Positions 11,527 to 29,792 of a stretch of 64,000 nt of DNA are shown here, one piece after another. The DNA is from Candidatus Poribacteria bacterium (GTDB lineage Bacteria > Poribacteria > WGA-4E > WGA-3G): positions 1,344,001 through 1,408,000 of the forward strand of contig OZ240248.1 of assembly GCA_965198235.1 (NCBI GenBank), in the 5' to 3' direction. The position numbers were made by a program, and so were the translations under genes. The notes under the pieces were generated by a model that was given only the letters and a program-made list of their open reading frames with translations, had not been told where the DNA came from and did no database searches. Every line of letters starts with the position of its first letter. The first letter of the stretch is position 1.

Positions 11527-11585
11527 GAGGACATGGTGTGCACGTTGGTGTTCCTCGTTCAGGGGTAGGCGATTGGAGGTCTGTT

Positions 11586-12596: not shown

Positions 12597-12605
12597 TCCA
12601 ATTAC

Positions 12606-14930
12606 TTATCGCAATGTTTTCAACTGTCCCCATGTGGATATCTCCTTACCAGCAGCACCGACATGCCCTTTCAGGCGGATGCCACGGGTCAAGGTCTGAT
12701 GATTCCCGTCAAGAGAGACCTCCTCTATCTGGTAGTAGTAGACGACGTTGGGTTGAGCAGTTGTATCCGTGTAGGTATAGAACTGCTTCTCGCTGGTCGT
12801 GCCTGCGCCAGGGACCATGGTTGCGTTGATGACCTTGAACTGTCCGTCTCGTTGCTGACTCCGCTTGATAAAGAATCCAGCGTTGTTCAACTCCGATTGC
12901 GTAGACCAAGTAATCACCACTGCGCCAGTCGCCTTATCACGGGCAGGACGGAAGTGCGAAAGCTCGACGGGCAACGCACCACCAGCACGGAATCCGGGTG
13001 TGCCGACATCAATCGGTAAGCCGTAGTAACTGCGTGCGCTCAGATGCATCTGTTGTGCGAAACTCGTATCAGAGGCGAGCACCCAAGAATCCATCAGCGT
13101 GCCGTCTTTCGGTTCCGCGGGACCCACAGAAACGGGAACGTGTCTACGGATAATCGAGCTACGTGCACCATCTTCGTCTATCGGTAGTGCCCACATCGCA
13201 GTGCCATCCTCAGAAACCAGGTTGCCAACCACATCCATTGCCGCGGCGCGAGCGGCTGCCTGTCCAATAAATACAGCCGTAACCGGCGGTGCAAGCGTTA
13301 TTTTGAACGCCGTCCCGCTCATCAACGAATAACGGCGTTTGGAAATACCCAACAGAATCAGTTCATACAGTTGATCCGTCCAGAGATTGACGACCTGACC
13401 GTCTGCCAGCCAGCCGTCAAGGTTATTACGTCCCTGTGCGGTGACAACGAGAACGGTTGACGGGGTATCGTGCTGTCCACTCGGATCAATCTTTGTGCCT
13501 TCCGGGATCGTGAATACCGCCTTCGCACCGATACTCACATCGACATCAGCAGCGTCGTTCTCGACTGTCAGCGTCCAACCACCCAGGTTCACCTGCTCTG
13601 TCCGGGAACCGTTGGAAATCTCAATCCACTGTGGCAATCTGCCACCCCCAGCGAACATAATCTCGCTGATGTAGATTTGACCTTCCTCCGGTATCATCAC
13701 GGAAGCATCTGCGGCTGTCGCATCGGCATCAGCAGTCGCCTTTTCCGCAGCTGCGGAGTCTATGCCGGAGCCAGCCTTATCTTTGACAGGAATGTCGTGT
13801 CCAGCTGTGCTGTTCGCATCAGTGATCTTTACATCATCGTCGTGTGGCAGGGATAGCGTAACCCCTGTTCCGGGTGGCATCGTGGTTGTCGCTACCGCAA
13901 GTCTGAGTTGCTCACGCCCGTTCGGCTTGTTCGCTACACCGAACGGCTTATACACATTCACGAATGGGGAAGCACCATCATGGAACTCCTTGAGACTGAT
14001 CTTCACCGTATCCACTCTGCGATGCGGCGTAATCGTCACACGGTACTGATGATACATATTATCCGTGCCAGTGGGCATAGGAACGTTCATAGCATCCGCA
14101 CCTGGTGCCACACCGGCCAAACCATCATCGGCCTCTCCACTGTGCACGTACATTCCCTCAGACGGATGCGGCAGAATCGTCGAATCCGCATCTCCCTGTG
14201 CATTCGCTCGTCGTGCGAAGGGGACACCTACGACCAAGTTGCTGGCTGTTCCACCTTCAACGTTAATCTTATCAAGTGTCAGACCGCCGTCAGGTTTCTC
14301 GGTGAGCACAATCCGCACGTCAAAGGCACCCGTAACTTTCTCCTCTTGGAAAGCACTGACGACCGCTTGGCTACTCGGGCGCAACCGCTGGATGGAAACC
14401 ACGTTCGGGCGATCAGTATTTACCGGTATGGGACCCATTAAATTAAACGACAGGGAACCCTCTTTACTCGTCTGCTCTTCATTAGGAGTAAGACGTTTGA
14501 CACCCGCTTTTATGTACAGATGAACTTTTCTGTCATCTGCATCAGTGCTGGCGGCAGCAATAGTAAACGCGAAGGTTTTCCTATCCGTTTGAACTCCACC
14601 AACGGCAGCATTGATGTCCTTTATGCTAATTTCTGATGTCGATCCAGCACCCGCTTGCCCGGTGCCATCAGTTGTTGCTGGAACAGCAAGAGCAGTTCGA
14701 ACACCGTTCTTATCTTCAACGTGAACAATGATAAACGCCCTCTCAGCAGTTGTAAGTGCTACTTCCTCAGCAAATGTAAGCGTAACGACGATATCTGTGC
14801 CGTATTGCTTGTTAATAACGCTAAATGTGGCATCGAAGTCATCAGCCGCCATCGCGGAAGGCACCACGAAAGCAAGAACAAATATTGTGATTAAACGCAT
14901 TAACGAAAATGCCATTTTCTTTGACAACAT
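12606..14930 (-). CDS. Secreted lamin-tail-like-domain surface protein, paralogue A (774 aa; apparently promoterless)
   Basis: Signal peptide MLSKKMAFSL..VPSAMA; IYISEIMF..QWIEISN..VNLGGWTL (LTD-like); C-terminal LPVELSHF..WSTQSELNNAGF..TWGQLK. Confidence 0.85.
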   Translation of the reverse strand: MLSKKMAFSLMRLITIFVLAFVVPSAMAADDFDATFSVINKQYGTDIVVTLTFAEEVALTTAERAFIIVHVEDKNGVRTALAVPATTDGTGQAGAGSTSEISIKDINAAVGGVQTDRKTFAFTIAAASTDADDRKVHLYIKAGVKRLTPNEEQTSKEGSLSFNLMGPIPVNTDRPNVVSIQRLRPSSQAVVSAFQEEKVTGAFDVRIVLTEKPDGGLTLDKINVEGGTASNLVVGVPFARRANAQGDADSTILPHPSEGMYVHSGEADDGLAGVAPGADAMNVPMPTGTDNMYHQYRVTITPHRRVDTVKISLKEFHDGASPFVNVYKPFGVANKPNGREQLRLAVATTTMPPGTGVTLSLPHDDDVKITDANSTAGHDIPVKDKAGSGIDSAAAEKATADADATAADASVMIPEEGQIYISEIMFAGGGRLPQWIEISNGSRTEQVNLGGWTLTVENDAADVDVSIGAKAVFTIPEGTKIDPSGQHDTPSTVLVVTAQGRNNLDGWLADGQVVNLWTDQLYELILLGISKRRYSLMSGTAFKITLAPPVTAVFIGQAAARAAAMDVVGNLVSEDGTAMWALPIDEDGARSSIIRRHVPVSVGPAEPKDGTLMDSWVLASDTSFAQQMHLSARSYYGLPIDVGTPGFRAGGALPVELSHFRPARDKATGAVVITWSTQSELNNAGFFIKRSQQRDGQFKVINATMVPGAGTTSEKQFYTYTDTTAQPNVVYYYQIEEVSLDGNHQTLTRGIRLKGHVGAAGKEISTWGQLKTLR

Positions 14931-15067
14931 TCGTTTAATCCCCCCGTGACCCTCTTCTGTAGGAGCGACCTCCTGGTCGCGATCTTCTGTTCGTAGTAGT
15001 GCGATTCATCGCACGTTCCCAAATCACAGTTCAGACAATTACTGACAACCGATAACTAACAACTACT

Positions 15068-15109
15068 AAAAAACAAAACGGGGTAATGTCGCTAAGGACA
15101 CTACCCCGT
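15068..15109 (-). terminator. Rho-independent terminator of paralogue B
   Basis: Minus strand acggggtagtgtc-cttagc-gacattaccccgt followed by tttgtttttt. Confidence 0.8.
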
Positions 15110-15171
15110 CTTGTGGTTAAGGTTAGTTCAAACAAATTTTATCCCTGAAATAACCTTGTTGTTCCTACTAC

Positions 15172-18100
15172 TTATTGCGATGTCTTCAATTCTCCCCACG
15201 TCAGCGTGGCTTTACCGGCGACACTCACATGCCCTTTCAGGCGCATGCCGCGGGTCAGCGTCTGACGATTACCATCGAGAGATACATCTTCAATCTGGTA
15301 GTAGTATACGACGTTGGGTTGAGCAGTTGTATCCGTGTAGGTATAGAACTGCTTTTCACTCGTTGTGCCTGCACCAGCGATCATTGCCGCGTTGATGACT
15401 TTGAACTCGCCGTCTTTTTGCTGACTCCGCTTGATGAAGAATCCAGCGTTGTTCAGCTCAGATTGCGTAGACCAGGTAATCACCACTGCGCCAGTCGCCT
15501 TATCACGGGCAGGACGGAAATGTGAAAGTTCAACAGGCAACGCACCACCAGGACGGAATCCGGGTGTGCCGACATCGCTTTGTGCGCCGTAGTAACTCGC
15601 GGCACGGATGTGCGTCGGTTGCGCGAAACTCGTATCGGATGCGAGTGCCCAATTCATCATCATCGTGCCATCTTCGGGTTCCGCAGCACCGACAGAGACT
15701 TGGACGTGTCCACGAATAATCGAGCTACGTCCGTCCTCACTCATCGGCAATGCCCATGCGGCAGCACCATCAGCACCGAGGTTACCCACGATATCCGTCG
15801 CTTCTGCGCGTTCCTTCGCGGCTTTGGCATCAGCGGCGGCCTTGGCGGCTGCAGCTGCGCGCGCGGCTGCGATTTCGGCTGCCGTTGTTGGCGCGGCTGC
15901 TTTCTTCGCTGGAGCTTCAATCGGCACCGGGGGGGCGAGCGTTATTTTGAACGCCATACCGCTCAACAACGAATAGCGAGGTTTCAGAACACCTGCTATG
16001 ATCAGGTCAATCTCGGTCGTAGACCCTGGTTGATTCAGGACCATAACCTGACTCCTTGCCTTCGCGCCCGTAAGGTTGTTACGTCCTCTTTCGGTCACGA
16101 GGAGCAGCGTTGACGGGGTATCGTCCTGTCCACTCATATCGATCTTCGTGCCTTTCGGGATCTCGAAAGTTACTGAACCGACACTCACATCGGTATCGGC
16201 TGCAGCGTTATCGACCGTCAGCGTCCAACCGCTCAGGTCGACCTCTTCTGACCGCGAACCGTTGGAGATCTCAATCCACTGTGGGAGCGTCCCACCGCCA
16301 GCGAACATAATTTCGCTGATGTAGATTTTACCGACCATCGGCATCGAGACAGAAGTATCTGCTGCTTTTGCGGCTGTTGCGGCTGCGGCAGCAGCTTTCG
16401 CTTTTGCTGCTGCTACTATAGCTGCGGCTTCAGAAGGACTAATGACACGTGTGGAACCCGGTGAAGCATCGTATTTACCTTCAAGACCTAACTTGAAGTT
16501 GACGCTTGGCGATGTCGACTGCATCCAACTACCTGCTACCGTACCGTTTGCGGGCATCATCGCGCCTGCTGCTGCACCTACTGTTGTATCTGCCACCATC
16601 CCACGATACATAGAAGCAAGCTGCTGTATCGGTGCGATTGCAGCGACATCTGCGGTACCTGCGTCAACCCCAGATCTTCCACTCTGACCTTTACCGGCGA
16701 TTGACCAGTAAATATCCGCTGTGGTCCCTGTTGTTGCGGGTGCGATAACGGTTCCAGCAAATGTTTTCGTACCGACCCGGTCAACGAGCACACCCGCTGT
16801 GCCATCATCCTTCACGTATGTCGCACGAGGGGTCTCGTTCGCTTGATAGAACCACAACGCCCATTTATTTTCACCAATCTCAATAGCGGCTGTGGTCGCA
16901 TTGGCAATCTCAATCCATTGGCTGTTTGTGGCATCAGCGGTTTGGCTGGCATCGGTGCCCCACATCACTTCACTGATATAGGCGGCTCCCGCTGCTGTGC
17001 CATCGTATGCCACGAGGTCAATCGTGCCATTATTGGCGAGGAACGTCTCTAAGTTCGGCAGACTCCCCGATGCCCTGACATTGTATAACAATTGGGCAGG
17101 CGTCTGCTTATGGGGGACATTCTCTACTTTCGTCTTATCCGCCGCATCTACCTCGTCCGAGAAATCTATGCCGGAACCAGCCTTATCCTTCGTAAGGATG
17201 TAGTGCCCAGCCGTGTCCGCGTAAGTGATCATTGCAGCTTCGCCGTGCGGCAGGTAAAACATAAACCCTGCACCGAGTGCAGCAAGGTCTGTCGCTACGG
17301 CGAGTCTGAGTTGCTCACGCCCGTTCGGCTTGTTCGCTACATTAAAAGGCTTATACACATTCGGAAACGGTACAGCATTATCATGGAATTCCTTGATACT
17401 GATTTTCACCATATCCACTCTGCGATGTGGCGTAATCGTCACACGATACTGATGATACATACTATCAGGACCCGTAGTCAGCGGGACAAATGTGTGATCG
17501 GTAAGACTTGGTGAACTCACCTCACCTAGCGCACCAACTAAAGCGTCGTCACCATCGTGAGCATACATACCCTCAATTGGATGGGGTCTATACGTGCTTG
17601 CCAACTGATCAGCGGTAGGCTCATCAGCGAGCGTATCTCCGAGCCGCGAGAAGGGCACACCTACGACCAAGTTGCTGGCTGTTCCACCGTCAACCTCAAT
17701 GTGAGCAAGTTTAAATTCATGCGGCAACTCGGTGAACACGATCTTAACGTCAAAGGCACCCGTAACTTTTTCCTCTTGGAAAGCAGAGACGACTGTTTGG
17801 CTACCCGGACGCAACCGTTGGATAGAAACCACGTTCGGACGATCAGTATTTACCGGTATGGGACCGATCAAATCAATACTCGCTGAAGCCTTTTTGCTCG
17901 TCTTCGCTTCCTCAGGGACAAAACGGGCAACACCTGCTGGTATGAACAGATGAATTTTTCTGTCATCCATATCAGTGCTTTCGGCATCAATAGTAAACAC
18001 GAACTGTTTTCTATCCGTTTGATCGCCGGTAACAGCAAGGTTGATGTCCTTCGCGCTAATTTCTGATGTTGATGTAGCACTAGCATCTGGCGGGTTGTCA

Positions 18101-18381
18101 CCAACTGCTGTAATTGTTGTGGGGACAGTGATAGCAGTTCGAACACCGTTCTTATCTTCAATATGAACGGTAATTATCCTTGTCTCTGCCTCCTGTATAT
18201 TTGCAAGCGGTACTTCCTCTTTAAAAGTAATCGTAACCTCGATATCTGTGGCATAGGTTGTATTAACAACGCTAAATTCGGCATCGAAGTCGTCAGCCGC
18301 TATCGCAGAAGGCACCACGAAAGCAAGAGCGAGAATTGTTATTAGACTCATTAACGAAAATGCCATTTTCTTTGACAACAT
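15172..18381 (-). CDS. Secreted lamin-tail-like-domain surface protein, paralogue B (1069 aa; faces the promoter)
   Basis: Same N- and C-termini as A and C; two LTD-like modules (YISEVMWG..QWIEIAN; IYISEIMF..QWIEISN); Ala/Lys-rich linkers. Confidence 0.85.
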   Translation of the reverse strand: MLSKKMAFSLMSLITILALAFVVPSAIAADDFDAEFSVVNTTYATDIEVTITFKEEVPLANIQEAETRIITVHIEDKNGVRTAITVPTTITAVGDNPPDASATSTSEISAKDINLAVTGDQTDRKQFVFTIDAESTDMDDRKIHLFIPAGVARFVPEEAKTSKKASASIDLIGPIPVNTDRPNVVSIQRLRPGSQTVVSAFQEEKVTGAFDVKIVFTELPHEFKLAHIEVDGGTASNLVVGVPFSRLGDTLADEPTADQLASTYRPHPIEGMYAHDGDDALVGALGEVSSPSLTDHTFVPLTTGPDSMYHQYRVTITPHRRVDMVKISIKEFHDNAVPFPNVYKPFNVANKPNGREQLRLAVATDLAALGAGFMFYLPHGEAAMITYADTAGHYILTKDKAGSGIDFSDEVDAADKTKVENVPHKQTPAQLLYNVRASGSLPNLETFLANNGTIDLVAYDGTAAGAAYISEVMWGTDASQTADATNSQWIEIANATTAAIEIGENKWALWFYQANETPRATYVKDDGTAGVLVDRVGTKTFAGTVIAPATTGTTADIYWSIAGKGQSGRSGVDAGTADVAAIAPIQQLASMYRGMVADTTVGAAAGAMMPANGTVAGSWMQSTSPSVNFKLGLEGKYDASPGSTRVISPSEAAAIVAAAKAKAAAAAATAAKAADTSVSMPMVGKIYISEIMFAGGGTLPQWIEISNGSRSEEVDLSGWTLTVDNAAADTDVSVGSVTFEIPKGTKIDMSGQDDTPSTLLLVTERGRNNLTGAKARSQVMVLNQPGSTTEIDLIIAGVLKPRYSLLSGMAFKITLAPPVPIEAPAKKAAAPTTAAEIAAARAAAAAKAAADAKAAKERAEATDIVGNLGADGAAAWALPMSEDGRSSIIRGHVQVSVGAAEPEDGTMMMNWALASDTSFAQPTHIRAASYYGAQSDVGTPGFRPGGALPVELSHFRPARDKATGAVVITWSTQSELNNAGFFIKRSQQKDGEFKVINAAMIAGAGTTSEKQFYTYTDTTAQPNVVYYYQIEDVSLDGNRQTLTRGMRLKGHVSVAGKATLTWGELKTSQ

Positions 18382-18556
18382 TCGTTCAATCTCCTTGTTC
18401 TTATGGAATAAAATTTTAAACTTAAACCTAAAACCTCACGGAAGGGAAAAAATGGAAAAGTAATCTTTTTCATGTCTTGCCTCCGCTTATGTACAAAATA
18501 AGAACGGATCCAGGGATTGTAAACCCATTCCTCATTTGAACCTAACCTTTTGCACA
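18308..18556 (-). repeat. Left arm of ~250-bp inverted repeat (leader + signal-peptide codons of B)
   Basis: Reverse complement of 20346-20592; only a few differences in the ~175-nt leader. Confidence 0.95.
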
Positions 18557-18695
18557 TAATGTAACTTACACATTATGTGCTGTTTTCAAGGGTTGCTAAT
18601 CGATGCGGCTCTAAGAGTGACTCTTAATGTGTGAAAACATCGCGTTTCAACTCATAATGTGCCAAAATATCGCGTTTCAACCCTTTACACAGTTA

Positions 18696-18724
18696 ATTCT
18701 ACCCTATTAAACGCTATTTGTCAA
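18696..18724 (-). promoter_or_regulatory. Strong sigma70 promoter directed at paralogue B, inside the inter-repeat segment
   Basis: Minus strand TTGACA-17 nt-TAGAAT; A/T tracts upstream (18725-18810), UP-element-like. Confidence 0.8.
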
Positions 18725-19372
18725 ATTAAAATTACAAAAAAACGCACTTTTTTGCGAAAAAACGCATAATTCGTCAAAAAAAGTGCGAAATTCGCAAAAA
18801 AAGTGTAAAATGGAGTATTGGTTGTCGTCAGAACTGTGATTTTTCTGATTTACTGAGTGGAAGAAGTCAGAACTGTGATTTCTGTGATTTCTGGGATGTG
18901 CCGTGATTGGGAAATTTTCAGAACTGTGATTTGTGGGATTTCTGGGATGTGCCGTGATGTAGAAAACGGTGTATCTAAGCAACCCCACCCCGTAGGGGTG
19001 CTATGTCTATAGAAAACGGTGTATCCAACCAAACGCACCCCGTAGGGGTGCTATGTCTATAAATAAGTGGCAACCTGCGTTACATTAATATATATTAAAG
19101 GAACCGAAGGTGGGGTATTATCTACAGCAGTTTCGTAGCGGAAACCCTCATCACAGAAATCACATCATCAGAAAAATCACAGTTCAGACAGCGGTTTTGC
19201 GGATAAGGCGGGTTAGAGGGGGGAGGTGCTGATAACGCCTGTCTTCTGTAGGAGCGACCTCCTGGTCGCGATCCACCTGTTTGTAGTAGTGCGATTCATC
19301 GCACGTTCTTATGCACCCCTGTCCCCCTGATAAGGGGGATTGAGAGGGTTGGGGGGTTACTGACCCCTACTA

Positions 19373-19491
19373 ACAAAAGCAGATAACGGGAGAGTTCCCT
19401 ATACTCCCCCGCTACCCTTTTAGTTTAATCAAATGGAGGAGATTAGTGTCGTCCTCAGGACAGGTTAAGTTTAGCCTCATTCCAGGAGGTT
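19373..19491 (-). ncRNA. Candidate small RNA (or 22-aa small ORF transcript)
   Basis: Between promoter 19499-19527 and hairpin gcgggggagt/actctcccgt + U-rich tail; contains anti-SD-like CCTCCT and CTCCTCC. Confidence 0.4.
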
Positions 19492-19498
19492 AACCTTA

Positions 19499-19527
19499 AT
19501 TATCCAATTTCTACGGAAAAATGTCAA
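19499..19527 (-). promoter_or_regulatory. Putative sigma70 promoter of the candidate sRNA
   Basis: Minus strand TTGACA-17 nt-GATAAT. Confidence 0.6.
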
Positions 19528-19766
19528 GGGGCAAGTCTTGTGCCTTCAGGGCTATTTAGTTTTAGGTGCTTTATCCAATTGAGCCGAAAAGTCGCGAGCG
19601 GGAGCTCGTTTCCCCAGGTCTTGTGCCTGCGCACCCAAGAACCATTGTAGGGGGTTTTTGCTTGGGGATTTCCCCAGGTCTTGTGCCTGCCCGTTCCCTT
19701 GTGCCTGCCCTATATACAGTATATATAAGGAGCACACCATATATACCTACATATAAGGAGCATACC

Positions 19767-20183
19767 ATGTCAAACGAAATCTATCTCTCCGTCGCCCAAG
19801 CCGCCGATCTACTGGGCATCTCGCAAGAAACCCTCTACAAAGAAATTCAATCTGGGAACCTTACCGCGACAGAGAACCCGGACCAAAAACGGAAGCATAA
19901 AGTCATCGCCGTCAGCGAACTCTCGCGCCTCTACGGTAAGATATGCATCCCTGACGGGTATCTCGAATACTCCGGGGATAAGTCAGTTGATTTTGTGAGG
20001 GTTGCGCTCCGACAAGAGAATGAGAGGCTCCGTAAGGCGTTGGAAGAGACCCAGAATCGCGAGCGGAATCTCAATGAGCAGCTCAAGACCGCACTTCAAA
20101 ACCACAAAACGCTTATCGAGACCCACGCAGATCTCACCAAAACCATCGATAATTTAACCACTGTGCTGGATAAAATGACCTAA
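19767..20183 (+). CDS. Excisionase/MerR-like winged-HTH DNA-binding protein with C-terminal coiled coil
   Basis: YLSVAQAADLLGISQETLYKEIQSGNL (HTH_17-like); heptad tail LRQENERLRKALEE; AAGGAG RBS before ATG 19767. Confidence 0.8.
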   Translation: MSNEIYLSVAQAADLLGISQETLYKEIQSGNLTATENPDQKRKHKVIAVSELSRLYGKICIPDGYLEYSGDKSVDFVRVALRQENERLRKALEETQNRERNLNEQLKTALQNHKTLIETHADLTKTIDNLTTVLDKMT

Positions 20184-20345
20184 ATTCTTTCTTGTTTGTA
20201 AAACACCTGCTATTTTACAGAGAATCCCTCCGGAATTACAATTTTTTGAAATACCTCCCGGCCCTCCCTCGTCTCGGTAGGCGCGGTTTGTAACTGGAAG
20301 CCTCACACTTCCGATTCTCGCCGCTCCTGGCCGAATTTAACCTTT

Positions 20346-20592
20346 TGTGCAAAAGGTTAGGTTCAAATGAGGAATGGGTTACAATCCCTGGATCCGTTCT
20401 TATTTGTACATAGACGGAGGCAAGACATGAAAAAGATTACTTTTCCATTTTTTCCCTTCCGTGAGGTTTTAGGTTTAAGTTTAAAATTTTATTCCATAAG
20501 AACAAGGAGATTAAACGAATGTTGTCAAAGAAAATGGCATTTTCGTTAACAAGTCTAATAACAATTTTTGCGCTTGCCTTCGTGGTGCCTTC
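20346..20592 (+). repeat. Right arm of ~250-bp inverted repeat (leader + signal-peptide codons of C)
   Basis: tgtgcaaaaggttaggttcaaatgagg...aaggagattaaacgaATGttgtcaaagaaaatggcattttcgttaa matches 18556-18308 reversed. Confidence 0.95.
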
Positions 20593-23500
20593 CGCAATGG
20601 CAGTGGATTTTGAGGTCACGATTGAGGGGCAGCGAGTGGTGACTTATCCAACAGGTCAAGAAGCCACAGCGCTTGATCCTATTCTACTGACAGTTACGTC
20701 CGAAGAGGCTCTTCCTGACCCTCTTATGGTAGGGGAGGATACCGATGAAAATGGTCTTACTGATCACGCAAATGATATCCTCGGAAACATAACTGTCACC
20801 ACTCGTGATGAAAGGGGTTTCGAAAAAGTTTTCATTACTGTTGAATCAGGTGATGATGCTCATAGTAGTATTGCTACAGGTGTTACAGTAGTAGACGACC
20901 CTGTAGATACTTTTGCTGATAGATCAGTGAAACTGCGTCAGTTACGTGTTACCATCACACCGGGTGCAGCTCCCACAACCCTCGAGCGGGTCACGATAAC
21001 AATACCTGCCTTTGAGACGCCTGATGTTCGTGTCGATGATCTTCACGATTGGAGCCTCGGGGCGTCACACACGATCCTCGTTAGAGATGTAGCGGATGTT
21101 GAGCTTGATGAGGATGACGCACAAGTGGTATCAATCCAGCGGTTGCGTCCGGGGAGCCAAACGGCAGTTGCGGCCTTCCAAGATCAGGAAATTAGTCCCG
21201 ATCCTTTTGATATTCGGGTCGTGCTCACCGAGTCGCGTTTTAACCGGATAGATTATATTGAGAAGACCCCGGATGAGCTTGCGGAGGAACTCATTGAGGT
21301 TGACGGCGGGGAAGTCAGTGACTTGAGAAGAGGTGTCCCTTTTGAAATTCGCAGAGTAACTGCTGCTACAGAATCTACGACTTTCAAACCGCATCCGAAT
21401 GAGGGGAGGTACGAGAATACTGGTATAGATGATGCACTCCCAGGACTGGAACCTATGGAGACTGTCCCGGAGCCCACGGGTCTTGATAATATGTATCATG
21501 AGTACCGTGTGACGGTTACGCCCCAGAGACGGCAAGGTCCTTACACCTTGACGCTCAGCGTGAAGGGATTCGGGAGTTATGCCCCGTTTCTCATAGGTGA
21601 AAAACCCAACGGTCGTGAGCAACTCAGGGTTCCCGTAAGGATGGATCCGAGAGACCGCACGGCTGGCATTCGGATAATTGTGGGGCACGATATCGTCGTT
21701 CCTAAAAATGGCTACTTGATCATCGCGACGGACTGGTGGCAGTCTCAAATCGTAATACCGCGGGGTAGGATAGACAAATCACCGAGGGCGATTGACCGGC
21801 AACCCGCTCAAATGATTTACAACCTTATCGACCACGGCGGTCTCCCGAACCTCGCAACCCAATTCTACAACGGTGTTGTGATTGATGTAGAGAGTTCAAA
21901 CGACTTGGTTATCTCTGAGGTGATGTGGGGTGAAGATGCAAGTTTGACTGAACCTGCACGCAGCCAATGGATCGAGTTGTATAACCCTGGTGATGAATTT
22001 AAGACGCCAGAGGATGATGCGGCTACGTATGACATTGATGAACGCCTCACGCTCGTTATCTATAGAGCGAACGAGTTCAGTGATATTCCGGCAAAGGTGG
22101 CAGTAGCGGCAACGGCGACTGCGCCCGCTACTATGGCATTGCCAGATAGAGTTACCGATCGGATCGGAACGCTCGATGCGACTGGGAAATACTGGTCACC
22201 CGCAACCAAAGGTCAAAGCGGTCGGAGCGGTCTTCCTATCGAGAGATTTGGAGAACTCGTAGACGTCGAAGTCATACCGACTATTGGGACAGGAGATGTT
22301 ACGCCCATCGTTTCGATGTATCGGGTGATGGAACCAGATACCTCAACAGATGCGGCAATCGGTGCGATGAAACCTGTCGACGGTCAAATGGCCGCGAGTT
22401 GGATGTCCTCTCAGCAGCCAAGGTCTGCGAACTTTCGTCCGCATGCGATTGGTCTCCGACACGGCACACCGGGTGCGACAACGGATGCTACCGATACACC
22501 GGCAGATACCGAAGCTGAAGCAAAAGCTAAAGCGGATAAGGAAAAAGCCGATGCGGATAAGATCGCCGGCACTGGGACGATTCCGAAAGCGGGTCAAATC
22601 TACATCAGCGAAGTTATGTTCGCTGGCGGTGGCACACTGCCGCAGTGGATTGAGATCGCCAACGGTTCTCGGGCAGAAGAAGTCAACCTGAGCGGTTGGA
22701 CGATTACGGTGGATAACGCCGCTGCGGATGCCGATGTGAGTATCGGTGCTTCAGCGACGTTCACGATCCCCAAAGGCACGACGATCGATATGAGTGGTCA
22801 GGACGATACACCCTCAACGATACTCGTTGTCACTGAAAAGGGACGTAACAGCTTTAGTGGTCCGAAAGCAGCGAGTCAGGTCATTGTCCTGGATGAACCG
22901 GGCTCAATGACTGAAATCGACCTGATTCTGGCAGGTGTTACGAAGGGCAAATACACATTGCTCAGCGGCATGGCGTTCCAGATAACGCTCGCACCGCCGG
23001 AACCAGAGGTGGATGAAACGGCAGCTGAGAAGACAGCGCGGTTAACCGCTGAGAAGGCTGAAACGGTAGCTGCGAAGACAACACGGCAAGCCGCTGAAGC
23101 GAGAGCCGCAGCGGAACGTAAAAGGGCAACGGATACGGTCGGTAACCTCGGTGCTGACGGTGCTGCTGCATGGGTATTGCCGATGAGCGAGGAAGGCGGT
23201 CGTAGTTCGATTATCCGCAGACACGTTCAGGTCGCTCGAGGTCCCTCAGCACCCGAAGACGGCACGATGATGGACAATTGGGTGCTTGCATCCGATACGA
23301 GTTTCGCACAAGTCACGCATATTCGTGCGCAGAGCTTCTACGGTGCGGCGAACGATGTCGGCACCCCCGGATTCCGTCCTGGTGGTGCATTGCCTGTAGA
23401 ACTTTCACACTTCCGTCCTGCGCGTGATAAGGCGACTGGCGCAGTGATGATTACATGGTCGACCCAATCAGAGTTGAACAACGCTGGATTCTTTATCAAG

Positions 23501-23761
23501 CGGAGTAATCAACCTGACAGCGAGTTCAAAATCATCAACGCGGCAATGATTCCTGGCGCAGGCACAATCAGTGAGAAGCAGTTCTATACATTTACGGATA
23601 CAACTGCGCAACCCAACGTCGTATACTACTACCAGATTGAAGATGTATCTCTTGACGGAAACCGTCAACAATTGACCCGTGGCATCCGCCTGAAAGGGCA
23701 TGTGAGTGTCGCTGGGAAAGCCACGCTGACGTGGGGAGAATTGAAGACGTCTCATGAGTAG
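20519..23761 (+). CDS. Secreted lamin-tail-like-domain surface protein, paralogue C (1080 aa)
   Basis: Same signal peptide and C-terminal ~150 aa as B; divergent N-terminal half; two LTD-like modules. Confidence 0.85.
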   Translation: MLSKKMAFSLTSLITIFALAFVVPSAMAVDFEVTIEGQRVVTYPTGQEATALDPILLTVTSEEALPDPLMVGEDTDENGLTDHANDILGNITVTTRDERGFEKVFITVESGDDAHSSIATGVTVVDDPVDTFADRSVKLRQLRVTITPGAAPTTLERVTITIPAFETPDVRVDDLHDWSLGASHTILVRDVADVELDEDDAQVVSIQRLRPGSQTAVAAFQDQEISPDPFDIRVVLTESRFNRIDYIEKTPDELAEELIEVDGGEVSDLRRGVPFEIRRVTAATESTTFKPHPNEGRYENTGIDDALPGLEPMETVPEPTGLDNMYHEYRVTVTPQRRQGPYTLTLSVKGFGSYAPFLIGEKPNGREQLRVPVRMDPRDRTAGIRIIVGHDIVVPKNGYLIIATDWWQSQIVIPRGRIDKSPRAIDRQPAQMIYNLIDHGGLPNLATQFYNGVVIDVESSNDLVISEVMWGEDASLTEPARSQWIELYNPGDEFKTPEDDAATYDIDERLTLVIYRANEFSDIPAKVAVAATATAPATMALPDRVTDRIGTLDATGKYWSPATKGQSGRSGLPIERFGELVDVEVIPTIGTGDVTPIVSMYRVMEPDTSTDAAIGAMKPVDGQMAASWMSSQQPRSANFRPHAIGLRHGTPGATTDATDTPADTEAEAKAKADKEKADADKIAGTGTIPKAGQIYISEVMFAGGGTLPQWIEIANGSRAEEVNLSGWTITVDNAAADADVSIGASATFTIPKGTTIDMSGQDDTPSTILVVTEKGRNSFSGPKAASQVIVLDEPGSMTEIDLILAGVTKGKYTLLSGMAFQITLAPPEPEVDETAAEKTARLTAEKAETVAAKTTRQAAEARAAAERKRATDTVGNLGADGAAAWVLPMSEEGGRSSIIRRHVQVARGPSAPEDGTMMDNWVLASDTSFAQVTHIRAQSFYGAANDVGTPGFRPGGALPVELSHFRPARDKATGAVMITWSTQSELNNAGFFIKRSNQPDSEFKIINAAMIPGAGTISEKQFYTFTDTTAQPNVVYYYQIEDVSLDGNRQQLTRGIRLKGHVSVAGKATLTWGELKTSHE

Positions 23762-23819
23762 TAGCAACAACAAGGTTATTTCAGGGATAAAATTTGTTTG
23801 AACTAACCTTAACCACAAG

Positions 23820-23858
23820 ACAGGGTAGTGTGCTACGGTGCATTGCCCTGTTTTGTTT
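23820..23858 (+). terminator. Rho-independent terminator of paralogue C
   Basis: acagggtagtgtgc-tacg-gtgcattgccctgt + tttgttt; homologous to the terminator of B. Confidence 0.8.
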
Positions 23859-24383
23859 ACAGACAACTCTATAAAAACGTTCATTGTTCGCGAAATATCG
23901 TAGTGCAACCTTTGTGAACACTAAAAAAAATTAATTCGGTGATGTGGGGTGTAAATCGTCTGAAGTCGGATTCATTGTGATTTAGAGATATACCCAATCA
24001 CAAAAATCACTGAATCATAAGAATCATAGTTCTGACAATTGCCCACAACCGCCCCTATTTCAAAATCACCAATAGCACACTATAGATTAAATCGGCAATT
24101 TGGCGCGGTTAGGACACCTCAACATAACGGGCTACATCCGCTCCGTTCGGACAGGAAATGCTGAGCTCCCACCCCACAGCAGGGGACTGTAGAACAAGAT
24201 CAAGGTAAACGCATCTTTTTTCAATATAAAGGCTGTCGGCAGTCAGGGCGTTCGCTGACGCTCACTTTCAGCAATCGGAAACCTTCAGTTAGCGTTCTGA
24301 TGGAAACCGATGGAAACCGACATCCAAAATTCTGACGGCTGACGGCTGATAGCCGACGGCTATAAATTGAGGTATATTTTTTC

Positions 24384-27300
24384 ATGAACACTTTAACCAC
24401 ACGACAAATTGTCCTTGGACTGCTGATGACGCTCGTGCTGGCGTTCAGCGTGCCGGGTATTGTAGACGCACAGAGCGTGTCGGTCAGCGGTGATGGGTCT
24501 ACTACGAGTACAAGTAGTGGAACTACAGTTATAACGGATTACCGAACTACGCCCGCCGTGGAGCGCTCTTTCACTATTACAGTAAGTAAAGCGGAAAATG
24601 GTGAAGTTATTACTATCAGAGGTAGTTCTGATGTTACTATCAACGAGATAAAGAAAGAAGATAAGTTAACTAACGAGACGGGAAGTGTTACTGGCGAGGG
24701 ATCAGGGGTGGTTACCATTACTGTTAATGCACCTAATGTTGGTGCTGACCGAGATCTCAATGGTGATAATGATAAAAACGATATAGTCACCTCTTTCTTG
24801 GAGAGTAATTTAGATGAGGATCTCAATAATGATGGTGACAAAGTTGATACATTCGGCTCAATCTCGGAGAGTGATTTAAATGCGGATCTCAATGGTGATG
24901 GTGACCAAACTGATACACTCAGTTCGGTAAAGGAATATCTAGAAGACCCAAACTGGGAGTCGGGATCTGTCACGATCACGGTGGATTACACTGTCACTGA
25001 ATTCGGGAGATATACGGTGACGGTGACAGCTAATGAAATTGATACCGATATATCGGGTTCTCCGATCACGGCTTACGTTGTCCGAAGCGACACCCTTGCG
25101 AGGGGTACCAGCATTGCTACGGGGTCAACCACAACTCCTGTGTTAAGAACAAGTAGTGTTAGTTTCACGATAGCTCCAGCTACTCAGTGGACCCGAGTGG
25201 ATTTGAAGGTCACCGGTGGGAAACTCTATTTGGACAGTGGTCGGTATTTGAGTAGTAACAAACTCTTTGACGTTACGCAAAGGAAAGAGTTCACCAGCCT
25301 TTCCATGTTTACAGGCGCGGGTGGTTCTCTCACCGTGAACCTTATACAAGATAGCGGGAAGGTTGCTAAAATTACTGCGACAATTCCGGGTTCCAACGCA
25401 CGAGGAAAAACGTATACCGTTACCTCTTTCGCCAGTGCCATTACAGTAGAGCAGGTATCCGGCAATCATCAGTTCGGATACACGAACCAAGGGGCAAACT
25501 ACGGCTCTTGGGAAAAGCTGCAAAATGCGCTTGTTGTTCGCGTAGTAGATGGACACCAAACTAACAACAACGTTGAGGGACAATGGGTTACGTTTACTAC
25601 GACTGGCACATCACGTTTGCGAGCTACCTCCCGCGCCAACCTCTGGCCTGGTGCCGATGGTACTATAACTGCTGCAGATGATAACCAGAGCCCCTTAACA
25701 GTGAAGACGGATGGCAGCGGCAGGGCGCAGGTTTACTTGCTACCAGGGACTACCCCTGCTACTTATACAGTAACCTACGCCGTGGTGTCTCAAGAGTCTC
25801 CTACGGCGTTGGGGACGGCTCTTACCGGAGCTGCTGCAAGTAGTCAGAGTCGAGGTGCCATTAATGAACAGTTCACGGCGACTGCAATTCTGGATCCTGG
25901 TGATACTCGCGAGCATGTAATTAATAGAAGTGAGTCTACGCCAACACCTGAAATACGTCGTGCCCAAGGCGACACAGAGATGATAGTCGATGTTGAAAAC
26001 AGTGGTGGAACTGATGCGCAGAATGTTCAAGTCGATTTTTCAGTCTCCGGTGGACGGCTCACGCTGACGCCGGGCTCGAACTATCAGACCTCGCTCTCCA
26101 CGGTCACCGATAGTGGGGGCGATGCCAGGGTTTGGGTCCAAGCAACTGGTAATTCTGTTGCCATAGTTACGGCTCGGATCGCTGGGAACAATGAAGATGC
26201 TGGAAGATATGTTGTTACCTTTCTCCGCACTGGTGCTTACATCGAGTATGTGTCGGGTGATGACCAGGACGGTGCTATCGGTGGAAGACTGGAAAATCCC
26301 CTTGTCGTTAAAGTGTTAGATGGCAGAGGCGGTAGTGCTATGCCGAACCAGATCGTTAGGTTTAATGTGACTGCCGATGATACCAATGACCATAATAGTA
26401 ACCGACGACAGTTTATTCCGGTCCCTGACACATACGTGTTTGTGACAGCAGCTAATACGGATATATTCGACGAGATTGGGGCTGACATGCCAGACGCTAC
26501 GAGTGTCCCACGTTTAGCTAACGCACTCCGACCCATTCGTGGGAGTAATGGCACTGGCCAGAACATCTTTATCCAAACCGATTCCAATGGCGAGGCTAAA
26601 GTTTACCTCCGATTAGGGAGTGCGGATGATACGGGTACCTCCGACACAGTGGAAACGGTGGATGCCGCGAGATTTAATGCCTTCAAAGTCCACCGGGTCA
26701 CGGCTACAACGCCAGATGGGGCTCCCAATGTGGGGGTCCGTTTTAGAGCCGATGCCGTGGATGATGCAAGACAAGCGAAGTTAGAGATTGTCTCAGGGGA
26801 TAGGCAGAGTGCCGAAAAAGGCGATCCTCTTGCGGATCCCTTGGTTGTTCGGGTGCGAACTGTGCGGGGATTTCTGATCCAAGGCATACTCCTGGAGTTC
26901 ACTGCCCTCGATGGTACCCTTCTCACGGATCCTGACCACGATACCGTCCTTGTTTCTGAGAGCGGAGGTGGTAACCAAATACGGGTCAGAACAGGTCCTG
27001 ACGGTGAAGCCCGGGTTGACTACAATGTGGGTCAACTGAGAATTGCGAGGGATGTCACAGTAGAGGTTGTAGAGGAACAAGGTACCCTTCAATACGACTT
27101 CGCGATTGATGAGGTAAGATTTGGTGTCAACGGTGGGCAAGGCACTGGCACAGGTGGAGGCACACGTCAACCGCCACCGCCACGAACGCCAACGAATACG
27201 ATCACGATTACGCTGTCGAGTAGGACGGGCGAGCCGGGTGACGAGATAGATGTTGAGGTTGATTCATCTCCGAGGGGTGTATTGGTCACTATAGACAGTG

Positions 27301-29591
27301 GCGAGCTCGATGACGACGATTTCTCGCGTCTCTCTAGAGGAACGCCTTTCACCAGTACCCTCTTACTTCCGGACGAAGAGGGGGAGTATACCTTCTCTGC
27401 CGAGCGTTCAGGTTTTGATTCAGACACAGCGACGGTTACGGTGGAATCCGAAACACAAGGCAGGATTTTGATTACGCGGAGCGGTAGCCCAACAGCAAAC
27501 AATATCCAAACGTTTAGCATTACCGTCCGAGGGACAGATGACGCTTTCATATCGGGTCCTTTGACGGTGAGGGTGACGGGTCCTGGAATCAATAGCAATG
27601 TACGAACCGCTAATGGCGCCGGTGCTGTAGATATTCCGCTACCGACCGCGTCAGGATTTCACACGTTCACTGCGAGGGCTGAGGGATATCTCTCAGGGAC
27701 GATTCAAGTGAGAGGAACCGGGACGGCACAGCAGGAAGCCACCGATGATGAAGAGGTAGAGGAGGAGGAAACGCCGACCGTCAGTGTGCCGGATAGTATC
27801 AGCATTGTCGGTCCATCCCAACGCAGTGGCACGGTGAACGCGGAACTCGAGGCGGCACTGATCGTCCAAGTCCTTGATGATGACGGTGATGCCGTTGAAG
27901 ATGCGATAGTCTATTTCCGTGTTGTCTCTGGACGGGGCAGGCTTTCGCAGCGTGGGAACGGACGAGCAATCGGAGTCGTGACCGATGATGACGGTTATGC
28001 ACGCGCCGCTCTCACCCCCACGGGTGATGGCACTATCACAGTCCGGGCAGAGGCTAGGGGTGTTACTCGAACCGTCGAGTTCACCATCAATACCGGTTCC
28101 GCACCTCCTACCACCAGAACTCCCGGCACAGGCGTTACGCCCAGCACGACAGTAAGTCCGGTTGTGCATGTCGGTGCTGCCAAGCGTCCGCCGATGTTAT
28201 GGGTAGACGGTGGCGCGATTTACGCACTTGTGGGTGCAAGCCCCGAAAGATTCGCACCGAGTGTTGATAACGCACTGAACATCGCAGTGAGTGGTGGTAA
28301 AGTCTACTGGACGGAGAAAACGGGTGAGAGTGGTGGCACGATCAACAGTGCGAACCTCAACGGGACAGGCGTTACCGAGCTGGCTTCGATCTTTGCTACC
28401 CCGATAGGGATCGCTGTTGACGCGGCGGGAAGTAAACTCTACTGGACGAACTCCGCTGGCAGAATCCAGAGTGCGAATCTCAACGGTTCCGGTATCCAAA
28501 ACGTGCTGCAAAACTTGGACAATCCGATGGATCTCGCCTTAGCGGGTGGCAATGTGTATTGGACACAAGGCAACGGCAGCGTCCGGTTTGTGAACCTCAG
28601 AGGTCAAAAAGTTGTTCGCAATATCTCCACAGGTTTGGATACCCCTGGAAGCCTCGTGATCGGTGGCGGGAAAGTCTACTGGACGGAGAAAACGGGTGAG
28701 AGTGGTGGCACGATCAACAGTGCGAACCTCAACAACACAGGTGCGACCCAGCTTGCCTCGATCCTTGCCGTTCCGATGGGCATTGCCGTTGACACTGCCC
28801 GGAGCAAACTCTACTGGACGAACTCGCGTGGTAGAGTTCAGAGTGCGAACCTTGACGGCAGCAAGATCCAGAACGTCGTTAGCGGTTTAGGGAGTCCGGG
28901 TGACATGGTGCTGAGCAACAGCATCGCAGCACCTGCGGCGACAACGACGACGACAACGACGAGGACCACGACAACCGCCTCCAAATATGATGTCAACGGA
29001 GACGGCTCCGTCGATAACGCGGACGCAAGTTTAGTCGCAGCCGCCATGAACACAAGCAACACCAGATACGATGTGAACGGGGACGGCACGGTCAACTTCC
29101 TTGACCTGCTCCTCGTCTTTGACAATCGTGATCCGGGTGCAGCGGGTGCGCCGACGATCGTTGGCATGAAGTTGAGTGCCGCTCAGATAGATCGCATTGA
29201 AGAACAGATCGATCTGTTGATCGCAACAGGTGATCGGTCACCGGCAGCGATGCGGACGCTGATTTATCTGCAGCAACTCCTCGTGATGGCACGTCCAGAG
29301 AAAACGCAGTTGCTCGCCAACTATCCGAATCCGTTCAACCCAGAAACCTGGATTCCTTATGAGTTGGCGACGGATACGCATGTGGAGATCACGATTTACA
29401 ACCCGCAAGGTGTTGTGATCCGGAGGTTGCAGCTGGGTCAGCAGTCGGCTGGCTACTACACGGATCGTGAGCGTGCGGCGTATTGGGATGGTCGGAATGC
29501 GCTTGGCGAACAGGTGGCGAGCGGTCTCTATTTCTACCAGTTTGAAACCGACGAAATGTCGTCAATGCGGAAAATGGTTATTTTGAAGTAG
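24384..29591 (+). CDS. Giant secreted adhesin-like protein: Ig-like (invasin-type) repeats, YWT/LDL-receptor class B-like propeller, dockerin-like and FlgD/T9SS-like C-terminal domain
   Basis: Signal peptide; repeated 'VSGD.Q...L..PLVV.V' and 'TDxxGxA.V'; KVYWTE/KLYWTN repeats; DVNGDGSVDNAD / DVNGDGTVNFLD; LLANYPNPFNPETWIPY..ASGLYFY..RKMVILK. Confidence 0.85.
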   Translation: MNTLTTRQIVLGLLMTLVLAFSVPGIVDAQSVSVSGDGSTTSTSSGTTVITDYRTTPAVERSFTITVSKAENGEVITIRGSSDVTINEIKKEDKLTNETGSVTGEGSGVVTITVNAPNVGADRDLNGDNDKNDIVTSFLESNLDEDLNNDGDKVDTFGSISESDLNADLNGDGDQTDTLSSVKEYLEDPNWESGSVTITVDYTVTEFGRYTVTVTANEIDTDISGSPITAYVVRSDTLARGTSIATGSTTTPVLRTSSVSFTIAPATQWTRVDLKVTGGKLYLDSGRYLSSNKLFDVTQRKEFTSLSMFTGAGGSLTVNLIQDSGKVAKITATIPGSNARGKTYTVTSFASAITVEQVSGNHQFGYTNQGANYGSWEKLQNALVVRVVDGHQTNNNVEGQWVTFTTTGTSRLRATSRANLWPGADGTITAADDNQSPLTVKTDGSGRAQVYLLPGTTPATYTVTYAVVSQESPTALGTALTGAAASSQSRGAINEQFTATAILDPGDTREHVINRSESTPTPEIRRAQGDTEMIVDVENSGGTDAQNVQVDFSVSGGRLTLTPGSNYQTSLSTVTDSGGDARVWVQATGNSVAIVTARIAGNNEDAGRYVVTFLRTGAYIEYVSGDDQDGAIGGRLENPLVVKVLDGRGGSAMPNQIVRFNVTADDTNDHNSNRRQFIPVPDTYVFVTAANTDIFDEIGADMPDATSVPRLANALRPIRGSNGTGQNIFIQTDSNGEAKVYLRLGSADDTGTSDTVETVDAARFNAFKVHRVTATTPDGAPNVGVRFRADAVDDARQAKLEIVSGDRQSAEKGDPLADPLVVRVRTVRGFLIQGILLEFTALDGTLLTDPDHDTVLVSESGGGNQIRVRTGPDGEARVDYNVGQLRIARDVTVEVVEEQGTLQYDFAIDEVRFGVNGGQGTGTGGGTRQPPPPRTPTNTITITLSSRTGEPGDEIDVEVDSSPRGVLVTIDSGELDDDDFSRLSRGTPFTSTLLLPDEEGEYTFSAERSGFDSDTATVTVESETQGRILITRSGSPTANNIQTFSITVRGTDDAFISGPLTVRVTGPGINSNVRTANGAGAVDIPLPTASGFHTFTARAEGYLSGTIQVRGTGTAQQEATDDEEVEEEETPTVSVPDSISIVGPSQRSGTVNAELEAALIVQVLDDDGDAVEDAIVYFRVVSGRGRLSQRGNGRAIGVVTDDDGYARAALTPTGDGTITVRAEARGVTRTVEFTINTGSAPPTTRTPGTGVTPSTTVSPVVHVGAAKRPPMLWVDGGAIYALVGASPERFAPSVDNALNIAVSGGKVYWTEKTGESGGTINSANLNGTGVTELASIFATPIGIAVDAAGSKLYWTNSAGRIQSANLNGSGIQNVLQNLDNPMDLALAGGNVYWTQGNGSVRFVNLRGQKVVRNISTGLDTPGSLVIGGGKVYWTEKTGESGGTINSANLNNTGATQLASILAVPMGIAVDTARSKLYWTNSRGRVQSANLDGSKIQNVVSGLGSPGDMVLSNSIAAPAATTTTTTTRTTTTASKYDVNGDGSVDNADASLVAAAMNTSNTRYDVNGDGTVNFLDLLLVFDNRDPGAAGAPTIVGMKLSAAQIDRIEEQIDLLIATGDRSPAAMRTLIYLQQLLVMARPEKTQLLANYPNPFNPETWIPYELATDTHVEITIYNPQGVVIRRLQLGQQSAGYYTDRERAAYWDGRNALGEQVASGLYFYQFETDEMSSMRKMVILK

Positions 29592-29601
29592 GGAAAGACA
29601 G

Positions 29602-29631
29602 AAAGGCGTGGTTTTCAGACCGCGCCTTTTT
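29602..29631 (+). terminator. Rho-independent terminator
   Basis: aaaggcgtggt-tttcag-accgcgccttt + tt. Confidence 0.7.
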
Positions 29632-29639
29632 CTATCCTA

Positions 29640-29792
29640 ACTCAAGTTGCTACTAACAGATTTTTCACATCCCAGTAAGGGTTTTTTAGTACCTTTCCTT
29701 ACCCCAGAGGGGTGATATGTCTATAGAAATAGCATATTTAAGCGACCGCACTCCAGCGGAGTGCTATGTCTACAATAGGTGGCAACTTGGGT
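29640..29792. mobile_element. 153-bp MITE (IS982-like ends)
   Basis: TIRs actcaagttgctac / gtggcaacttgggt; flanking 7-bp direct repeat TATCCTA. Confidence 0.85.

Follow-up and report, generated by a model that had tools for sequence, protein, structure and literature searches.

Why do the two arms of an inverted repeat cease to resemble each other at a palindrome, at both of their inner ends? The question is raised by a locus of a Candidatus Poribacteria bacterium, of which we analysed 64,000 nucleotides (GenBank assembly GCA_965198235.1, contig OZ240248.1, positions 1,344,001 to 1,408,000 of the forward strand; hereafter the window, numbered from its first letter). Two arms, 93 % identical to each other, lie in inverted orientation on either side of a centre of ~1.8 kb (18563-20339), and a first-pass annotation had proposed that the palindromes at their inner edges are crossover sites comparable with the hix sites of serine invertases. 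We find that the inverted repeat is not a free-standing repeat; it is the leader and signal-peptide cassette of two divergent paralogous genes, the products of which are secreted proteins with a lamin-tail domain (LTD; PF00932). As to the palindromes themselves, we put at about even the chances that they belong to the transcript as stem-loops and mark where a conserved leader module begins, that identity between the arms breaks off where this module does, that their different structures come from different control regions, and that exchange of the module explains both the concerted evolution of the arms and the inversions of the centre. On this reading identity stops at the palindromes because the module ends there and two different upstream control regions begin.

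Each arm comprises the leader, the ribosome-binding site (RBS) and the signal-peptide codons of one LTD gene (Table 1). Four differences distinguish the arms (two 1-nt indels, AAGC/AGAC, and a G/A ahead of the start codon), and beyond the last signal-peptide codon they are no longer similar, in the window as well as in the related loci L012 and L019. A single-protein query of genome contigs gave no relative; an alignment query gave 66 loci (numbered with the prefix L), all of them in Poribacteria metagenome-assembled genomes. The LTD family is large, multi-copy and specific to Poribacteria; 409 proteins belong to it at E ≤ 0.001 among the candidates scored, and the closest relatives of the window protein (P0002-P0007) are 89-93 % identical to it. 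Aligned over 41 members, the family shows a near-invariant signal peptide, ~200 hypervariable residues after it and a conserved C-terminal half.

Table 1. Positions of the repeat arms, genes, promoters and structured elements in the window
Feature	Position	Strand	Remarks
Third LTD paralogue	12606..14930	-	774 aa; only RBS and signal peptide in common with the other two, without the 5′ module
Left LTD-family gene	15172..18381	-	1069 aa; adjoins the FGE-sulfatase flank
Left arm of inverted repeat	18299-18562	-	~175-nt leader, RBS and signal-peptide codons of left LTD gene
Left copy of 5′ module	18489..18556	-	P1 3′ arm, AAGGTTArGTTCAAA, H2 and T-run; nhmmer E 1.1e-19; covariance-model match
Hairpin H2	18500..18532	-	Followed by ATTTTGT; terminator-like by scan, candidate attenuator; right-arm counterpart 20370-20401
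Left palindrome (hairpin H1)	18552-18580	-	GCACATAATGT-aacttac-ACATTATGTGC; perfect 11-bp arms, 7-nt loop
Small helix-turn-helix ORF remnant	18573..18623	-	Last 16 codons (..LLEPHRLATLENST) and stop
Promoter P_B	18696..18724	-	TTGACA-17-TAGAAT, 11/12 matches; faces left LTD gene
Conserved block in centre	19378..19528		Hairpin 19381-19417 with T-runs on both sides, two further hairpins
HTH_17 gene	19767..20183	+	138 aa, in centre; winged helix-turn-helix, then long helix
Promoter P_A	20214..20242	+	TTTACA-17-TACAAT, 10/12 matches; faces right LTD gene
Right palindrome, extended	20333..20364	+	15-nt arms 20333-20347 / 20350-20364 once two G-T/G-U pairs are allowed
Right palindrome	20338-20359	+	TAACCTTTTG-tg-CAAAAGGTTA; perfect 10-bp arms, 2-bp centre, read from sequence
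Right arm of inverted repeat	20340-20601	+	Leader, RBS and signal-peptide codons of right LTD gene
Right copy of 5′ module	20346..20409	+	Profile E 6.5e-18; covariance-model match
Right LTD-family gene	20519..23761	+	1080 aa

Both palindromes are present as they had been described, as direct reading of the sequence confirms. When the whole window was scanned for perfect arms of at least 10 with a loop of at most 8, exactly two palindromes of that size were found, the left one and the right one; 30 Markov-1 random sequences contained 0.5 on average and 2 at most, and a chance origin of the two is excluded. Searched at up to 3 mismatches, the right 22-mer matches only the two inner leader edges (0 expected from 100 shuffles). 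The perfect left palindrome has another register and another sequence than the right one, and the two have no half-site in common. The onset of identity between the arms proved less abrupt than first stated: it is unbroken from TGTGCAAAAGG (position 20346 on the right), and a weaker homology continues inward for ~15 nt, where the left side reads GTAAGTTAC-ATTAT-GTG and the right side CGAATTTAAC-CTTTT-GTG. The start of the arms in five other species is 11-17 nt ahead of the core. Neither palindrome qualifies as an intrinsic terminator: the right one has no T-run on either strand and is absent from the list of terminator-like sites; the left one is listed on the plus strand only (tail TGTTTTCAAG, 4 G-C pairs), where no upstream gene reads into it.

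What the relatives conserve at this position is the leader module. Searched with a profile built on the initial ~70 nt of the leader, the window and the 66 Poribacteria loci together yield 57 copies (E ≤ 0.01), of which the window has two. The leaders consist of a conserved 5′ module, a variable middle and a conserved 3′ part ending at the start codon, and the 5′ module itself runs from a motif here called P1 (GAAnTTAAC, 14 nt, GTTArGTTC) through a near-invariant AAGGTTArGTTCAAA to the hairpin H2 (GAATGGAT...ATCCGTTC, with the invariant loop AATCCCTGG) and a T-run. Leader homology in relatives begins at the counterpart of window position 20346-20352, or ~15 nt before. The right palindrome is this inverted motif P1 closed through its 14-nt loop, and it is perfect in this lineage only; the check on its conservation in relatives went against a crossover site, with only the outer TTAAC/GTTAA kept and the inner dyad not conserved. 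In L008, L014, L020 and L030 the inner part is a direct, not an inverted, repeat of AAAAGG, and in the other six divergent pairs only TAAC/GTTA and an A/T-rich character are kept while the inner arms are not complementary, or partly so in L010. The P1 motif also stands ahead of genes that have no inverted partner (L005, L013-L015, L020 and L029-L031). In a distant clade (L042, L045, L048, L052, L053 and L055) a GCUG..CAGC hairpin with varied inner pairs occupies the same position, within a P1-like outer helix, and such hairpins of different sequence at one position across clades are suggestive of a structured RNA leader.

Other properties of the leader may be recorded here. P1 was considered by eye as a promoter of the sigma-70, extended -10, ECF (extracytoplasmic function)-type or sigma-54 type, and dropped, its spacings being 15 or 25 nt, its hexamers poor and tool support wanting; a promoter within H2 (TTTACA-17-TATTTT) was likewise dropped, its second hexamer being lost in relatives. 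A 40-codon upstream open reading frame (ORF) behind a GGAGG in mid-leader (20428-20549 and, on the minus strand, 18472-18351) overlaps the main start codon and may be translated; L013 and L025 have the same optional mid-leader segment, with GTG and TTG at the position of the start of this ORF. Inside the P1 5′ arm of L005 (9780-9880) there is an insertion of ~90 nt resembling a miniature inverted-repeat transposable element (MITE), with 12-bp terminal inverted repeats (AGGACTTACGCA) and a CTTAAC-like target duplicated on its two sides; the sequence of its ends is met again in L008.

Upstream of the module the copies part company. Among 37 full leader copies, 17 have an upstream region like that of the window left arm (class B), 5 have one like that of the right arm (class A) and 15 have neither. 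The class A region starts after the stop of the HTH_17 gene. Each of the two regions contains a predicted sigma-70-type promoter facing its LTD gene: in class B the -10 hexamer TAnAAT of P_B is kept in 15 of 15 aligned copies and the -35 hexamer TTGACA in 10 of the 11 copies reaching that far, and for P_A the figures are 4/4 (TACAAT) and 3/4 (TTTACA) in aligned loci with the HTH_17 gene. Because these hexamers are conserved, both palindromes are predicted to lie ~90-130 nt inside transcripts, downstream of the promoters, the predicted starts being near 18689 (minus strand) and 20249 (plus strand).

The class B region also accounts for the left palindrome. In L004, L008, L012-L016, L019, L020 and L030 the class-B promoter would drive an intact and co-transcribed small ORF of ~85-97 aa with a weak match to HTH_23, and the stop codon of this small helix-turn-helix (HTH) ORF sits inside a GCAC..GTGC hairpin with varied inner stems, either directly ahead of the leader or 17-35 nt ahead of it; such stop-codon hairpins are seen whether the genes at a locus are single, tandem or divergent. 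The ORF has lost ~200 nt in the window, L010, L017, L018 and L044, and the end of the window remnant (..ESLLEPHRLATLENST) can be compared with that of the intact L016 ORF (..KESLLEPHRMATLEDSTP). The stop codon of the remnant sits in the 5′ arm of the left palindrome, which is therefore this clade's stop-codon hairpin; the 3′ arm derives from the leader's own TAAC-N5-GTG. Two tandem 30-nt units at 18620-18679 (TTGAAACGCGAT..CACATTA.GAG, minus strand) duplicate the 5′ untranslated region (5′UTR) of the lost small-HTH ORF.

The centre has not kept one orientation. Two full 5′ modules in divergent arrangement occur at seven loci (the window, L010, L012, L016, L017, L019 and L044), and in each exactly one side is of class B. 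The flanks of the window are common to L010, L017 and L018 only, with flank proteins 85-98 % identical. When the window is compared with L010, the flanks align on the minus strand and the centre on the plus strand; the side that class B faces is that of the FGE-sulfatase in the window and L018 and that of the sulfatase in L010 and L017. The ~1.8-kb centre is inverted relative to conserved flanks between species. The idea of an invertible segment between the arms is supported at the evolutionary scale, and as in an inverton the inverted repeats flank a segment carrying outward-facing promoters; the accompanying notion of ON and OFF states is weakened, because these promoters are two, one per end, and each side has its own. 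The LTD orthology of the window and L010, which bears on whether the centre alone was flipped or the genes too, gives no clear partner: the N-terminal regions are too diverged, scoring 39-105 across the window, L010, L017 and L018 genomes, with pairs among L010, L017 and L018 reaching 191, and the LTD 3′ halves are homogenised within each genome.

A second, independent and clearer case is provided by L017 and L044. Each has one LTD gene, the other side being a truncated leader of the 5′ module alone followed by a homologous stub, and the L017 arms are identical at 66 of 67 nt. The two loci are mirror images, the LTD gene adjoining class B in L044 and the other end in L017, and the exchange must have taken place within ~80 nt. 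More generally, the 5′ modules of one locus are 86-99 % identical (8 full pairs), whereas pairs from different loci have a median of 71.8 % (730 pairs), and because identity within loci exceeds that between them we conclude that exchange between arms is ongoing. Most copies have their homology breakpoint ahead of P1; that of the third L013 copy and of L032 falls between P1 and H2, and that of L017 and L044 after H2. The first-pass annotation had named scattered crossovers as the outcome that would tell against its sites, and by that measure several breakpoint places in the module speak against a single crossover site. At L008 9060-9130 (and in L011 and L028 of the same genome) a leftward-facing cassette of promoter and small HTH has on its left two P1 5′ halves that meet head to head at the motif centre. 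By eye, 16 of 20 positions of the outer half agree with the class-A 5′ flank in reverse complement, and a junction of this form would be expected if the DNA had broken at the P1 centre or a long palindrome had been deleted.

The long LTD leader opens with a conserved ~80-nt module, and we propose that the palindromes are stem-loops bounding its two copies on the 5′ side. The left control region would consist of P_B, the remnant of the small HTH gene and the stop-codon hairpin, and the right one of the HTH_17 gene and P_A. Both palindromes would be transcribed, most likely acting as RNA hairpins, the right one as the family P1 helix locked shut and the left one as a hairpin competing with P1; each would be followed by the terminator-like H2, so that the two leaders would fold differently ahead of a possible attenuator. 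The two leader cassettes would be kept alike by gene conversion, and the inversions between species would stem from exchange between leader modules, probably homologous or illegitimate and not site-specific. The sequences establish the anatomy and conservation of the locus, its promoter motifs and the species-to-species inversion of its centre; the transcription starts, the function at the RNA level and the attenuation are the parts of this scheme that we infer.

RNA hairpins differing between leaders had been offered as one option among several, and this is the part of the first-pass annotation that fits best. Read on the minus strand, the left palindrome lies within the predicted 5′UTR of the left LTD gene, and both predicted 5′UTRs fold better than shuffled sequences (z = -2.84 and -4.16), the palindromes forming separate hairpins. 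The G-U-compatible extension of the right palindrome and the recurrence of the hairpin elsewhere point the same way. H2 has 93.6 % of cells paired in 39 copies, with few compensatory changes, and P1 and H2 together have 82-85 % in the plain and covariance-model alignments (84.6 % on the 39 model-fitted copies). In a search of window positions 11000-31000 against Rfam 15 at E ≤ 1 no family was found, the sole match being a chance-level isrG inside a coding region.

A number of observations weigh against the proposal. Transcription start sites were placed from promoter-consensus matches alone. RNAalifold returned no consensus structure for the 37-sequence leader alignment. Covariation scores 0.150 in the model-fitted alignment, against 0.139 ± 0.006, and 30 of 500 shuffles come as high; changes on both sides of a helix amount to four pairs and seven cells only, and P1 is paired in just 76 % of cells; covariation support is weak, and the P1 and H2 helices are mostly conserved and not covarying, as a DNA-level site would also be. 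A significantly stable edge hairpin (z < -2) is present in only 14 of 37 leader copies, and a strong hairpin is not required by the family, because most class-A copies of other species have none. The right palindrome, with its 12 + 2 + 12 geometry and A/T-rich inner part, resembles an invertase site, and the left edge, read in the register of the right palindrome, matches it at 19 of 22 positions and retains 7 of the 10 dyad positions. Finally, the inversion of the centre between species implies that the arms may be more than passive paralogy.

These last points also favour reading the palindromes as hix-like sites, at which a site-specific invertase of the serine type, encoded elsewhere, would flip the 1.8-kb centre and swap the control regions. 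The 2-bp core of the right dyad, the retention in relatives of the outer TTAAC/GTTAA and of an A/T-rich inner part, the opposite orientation of the centre in L010 and L017 relative to the window and L018, the mirror images L017 and L044 with an inverted repeat reduced to the 5′ module, the head-to-head P1 halves of L008, L011 and L028 and the conservation within the centre of a Xis/BldC-like HTH protein also speak for such an enzyme. However, no serine recombinase (Resolvase or Recombinase domain) was found among the ORFs scanned, 41 in the window and 92 at 13 related loci, the latter including a single tyrosine integrase, on the L004 contig ~9 kb from the centre; no invertase enhancer was identified either. 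The two palindromes differ, the inner dyad of the right one gives way to a direct repeat in four relatives, the P1 motif and the left hairpin occur before single or tandem genes without an inverted partner, the breakpoints fall in at least three places, and promoters on both sides leave no simple ON/OFF switch to be thrown. We regard hix-like crossover sites as very unlikely. A freer version, to which we give a modest chance and which we still doubt, would have the 1.8-kb segment with its two promoter and regulator sets flip appreciably between the two LTD genes via the ~80-nt module; an enzyme encoded elsewhere, possibly one of the YhgA-like (Rpn-type) nucleases, would preferentially break or bind the DNA at the P1 dyad, and the whole would be a poribacterial surface-variation system based on a new kind of site.

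If the palindromes act as DNA, they might instead be operators for a dimeric regulator, either the HTH_17 protein or the small HTH protein, and serve as roadblocks or regulatory sites ahead of the leaders. The HTH_17 protein is a plausible candidate, with a fold like those of MerR-family and BldC/Xis proteins and with 77-100 % identity in the best 120 of its 219 clusters; its gene ends 155 nt upstream of the right palindrome, and TTAAC-N14-GTTAA is conserved without covariation, as for a DNA site. One protein cannot explain both palindromes, though, as they have no common half-site, and the protein is highly conserved, yet the perfect dyad is present only in the window and partly in L010. The sites also lie ~90-130 nt downstream of the promoters and not within them, the CTTGTGCC repeats 5′ of the HTH_17 gene are not conserved in 7 other loci, and the Foldseek E-values are weak; operators are improbable. 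It could also be that the palindromes have no function of their own, being quasi-palindromes, at the border of a repeatedly recombining cassette, which were perfected either through template switching in replication or through the ends of gene-conversion tracts. The perfect right dyad is indeed lineage-specific and built on an older imperfect inverted motif, the left hairpin was rebuilt in this clade after the deletion in the small ORF, the arms evolve in concert, and the region is rich in rearrangements and in insertion sequence (IS) and MITE insertions. Against this, the two palindromes are the only ones of their kind in 64 kb and both occupy equivalent positions, and the hairpin of different sequence at the same position in the distant clade argues for selection on structure, so that we consider a mere by-product unlikely, with a small but appreciable probability. 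The reading of the palindromes as transcribed stem-loops at the module edge remains the one we prefer.

Across 7 loci the HTH_17 protein encoded in the centre shows 80-87 % identity. Its structural model (predicted local distance difference test score, pLDDT, 81.9) has weak Foldseek matches to BldC (6ama_Y, E 4.9e-3), to the Xis protein of mycobacteriophage Pukovnik (4j2n_A) and to MerR-type MtaN, and in NCBIfam there are sub-threshold matches to a plasmid replication DNA-binding protein and an excisionase domain. Judged by this predicted structure, it is a DNA-binding protein and not a recombinase. For many of its homologues the contig is very short (579-2,000 bp), and short-read assemblies evidently separate the centre from its surroundings; such contigs are expected for a unique segment between repeats, and mixed orientations would be compatible with them also. 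The CTTGTGCC repeats, four copies directly 5′ of the window gene, were considered as a link to the TGTGC boundary and set aside as window-specific, being found in 0 of 7 other loci.

Also within the centre, the conserved block is possibly a small RNA gene. One of its further hairpins shows a compensatory change (GTCCT/AGGAC versus GTTCT/AGAAC), and a promoter-like site on its minus strand (19527-19499), TTGAC(A/T)-17-(G/T)A(T/C)AAT, has hexamers kept in 7 loci and a spacer that varies. Counterparts lie at 9016-9163 in L010, at 9479-9625 and 8901-8974 in L017 and at 8599-8718 and 7194-7298 in L044, the second copy in L017 and L044 following the truncated leader. A 67-nt element of the centre (19242-19308) has copies 91-94 % identical to it just past the stops of two LTD paralogues (14953-15018 and 12531-12597). 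A dispersed intergenic repeat of ~50 nt resembling REP (repetitive extragenic palindromic) sequences, with the hairpin GCACCCCTACGGGGTGC, occurs in tandem pairs or arrays at 18984-19088, 11805-11909, 59089-59187, 33830-33906, 1083-1160 and 29701-29794 in the window, and in at least 8 tandem copies at 13602-13994 in L002.

In the window an IS1-type InsA-like HTH protein (47525-47989) is the sole mobile-element-like product. No reverse transcriptase was seen among the window ORFs, and a diversity-generating retroelement was dropped from consideration for that reason. The enlarged centre of L012 was rejected as the seat of a recombinase of the system, since an IS630-like element and TnpB insertions account for it. 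YhgA-like Transposase_31 genes, which we take to belong to the Rpn family of recombination-promoting nucleases, lie beside LTD loci in 5 of 13 scanned loci (L010 13438-14508; L017 13464-14591, 14844-15935 and 16076-16942; L044 12191-13297; L008 18050-19192; L030 4491-5546); there is none in the window. The L004 contig (24,869 bp; positions 11-1501, 22292-23176, 16405-17805 and 7340-8551) carries three LTD genes, an HTH_17 gene, a Rep_3 initiator, a tyrosine integrase, a Tn5-type transposase and a TnpB gene, and may be a plasmid or mobile island carrying the LTD family.

Among known systems, the sap locus of Campylobacter fetus has opposed surface-protein paralogues with a conserved 5′ cassette and long inverted repeats around a promoter-bearing segment. 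Passages of a published account of this locus (PMC4943207) describe it as repeat-rich and recombining. The locus studied here likewise has opposed surface-protein paralogues that have in common a 5′ cassette of upstream region and first codons and differ in their variable parts; their long near-identical 5′ regions evolve in concert, and the segment between them occurs in both orientations, here between species. The single promoter that sap has on its invertible segment is replaced by two promoter-like sites with conserved hexamers, P_A and P_B, one at each end of the centre, and in place of S-layer proteins it is LTD-domain proteins that this uncultivated sponge symbiont encodes there. By analogy, the scheme that we prefer is most like the conserved 5′ regions of the C. 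fetus sap homologues, and a switch with the leader as its substrate would be nearer to sap than to Hin/hix.

The sites of serine invertases (Hin/hix, Gin/gix) have half-sites of ~12 bp in dyad around a 2-bp core. The right dyad is similarly placed at the inner edge of the inverted repeat, with end-to-end identity starting near the core, whereas no invertase gene was found within the segment or close to it, relatives do not conserve the dyad, and the arms run 260 bp outward as leader and coding sequence. Leader attenuators and other 5′UTR stem-loops offer a likeness of another kind, in that stable hairpins lie in long conserved leaders past promoters and are followed by a hairpin with a T-run, and one hairpin, like intercistronic stem-loops, sits on the stop codon of an upstream small ORF; by contrast with attenuators, no ligand, protein partner or antiterminator pairing was identified here. 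In the mycoplasma vsa, vsp and vlp systems a conserved upstream region and signal peptide are fused to hypervariable parts, and recombination at the 5′ end reassorts expression by means of dedicated tyrosine recombinases and short sites, or by promoter slippage. The LTD family, too, is multi-copy and combines a conserved upstream region and signal peptide with a hypervariable mature part; the dedicated recombinase with its short sites and the promoter slippage are features of the mycoplasma systems.

A literature search on Poribacteria and the lamin tail domain gave no match, and none of the matches listed for Poribacteria, invertible and phase variation mentions Poribacteria. These bacteria are uncultivated sponge symbionts, and we found nothing in print on the regulation or variation of their surface. 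The locus presents a large secreted family with hypervariable N-termini behind an unusually conserved leader and signal-peptide cassette. Within loci this cassette is kept homogeneous, and the control segment that it flanks has been flipped between species. Should the leader be a regulatory RNA, it would be a new and easily testable motif, and if switching takes place within populations, the locus would be the first surface-variation system described for the phylum.

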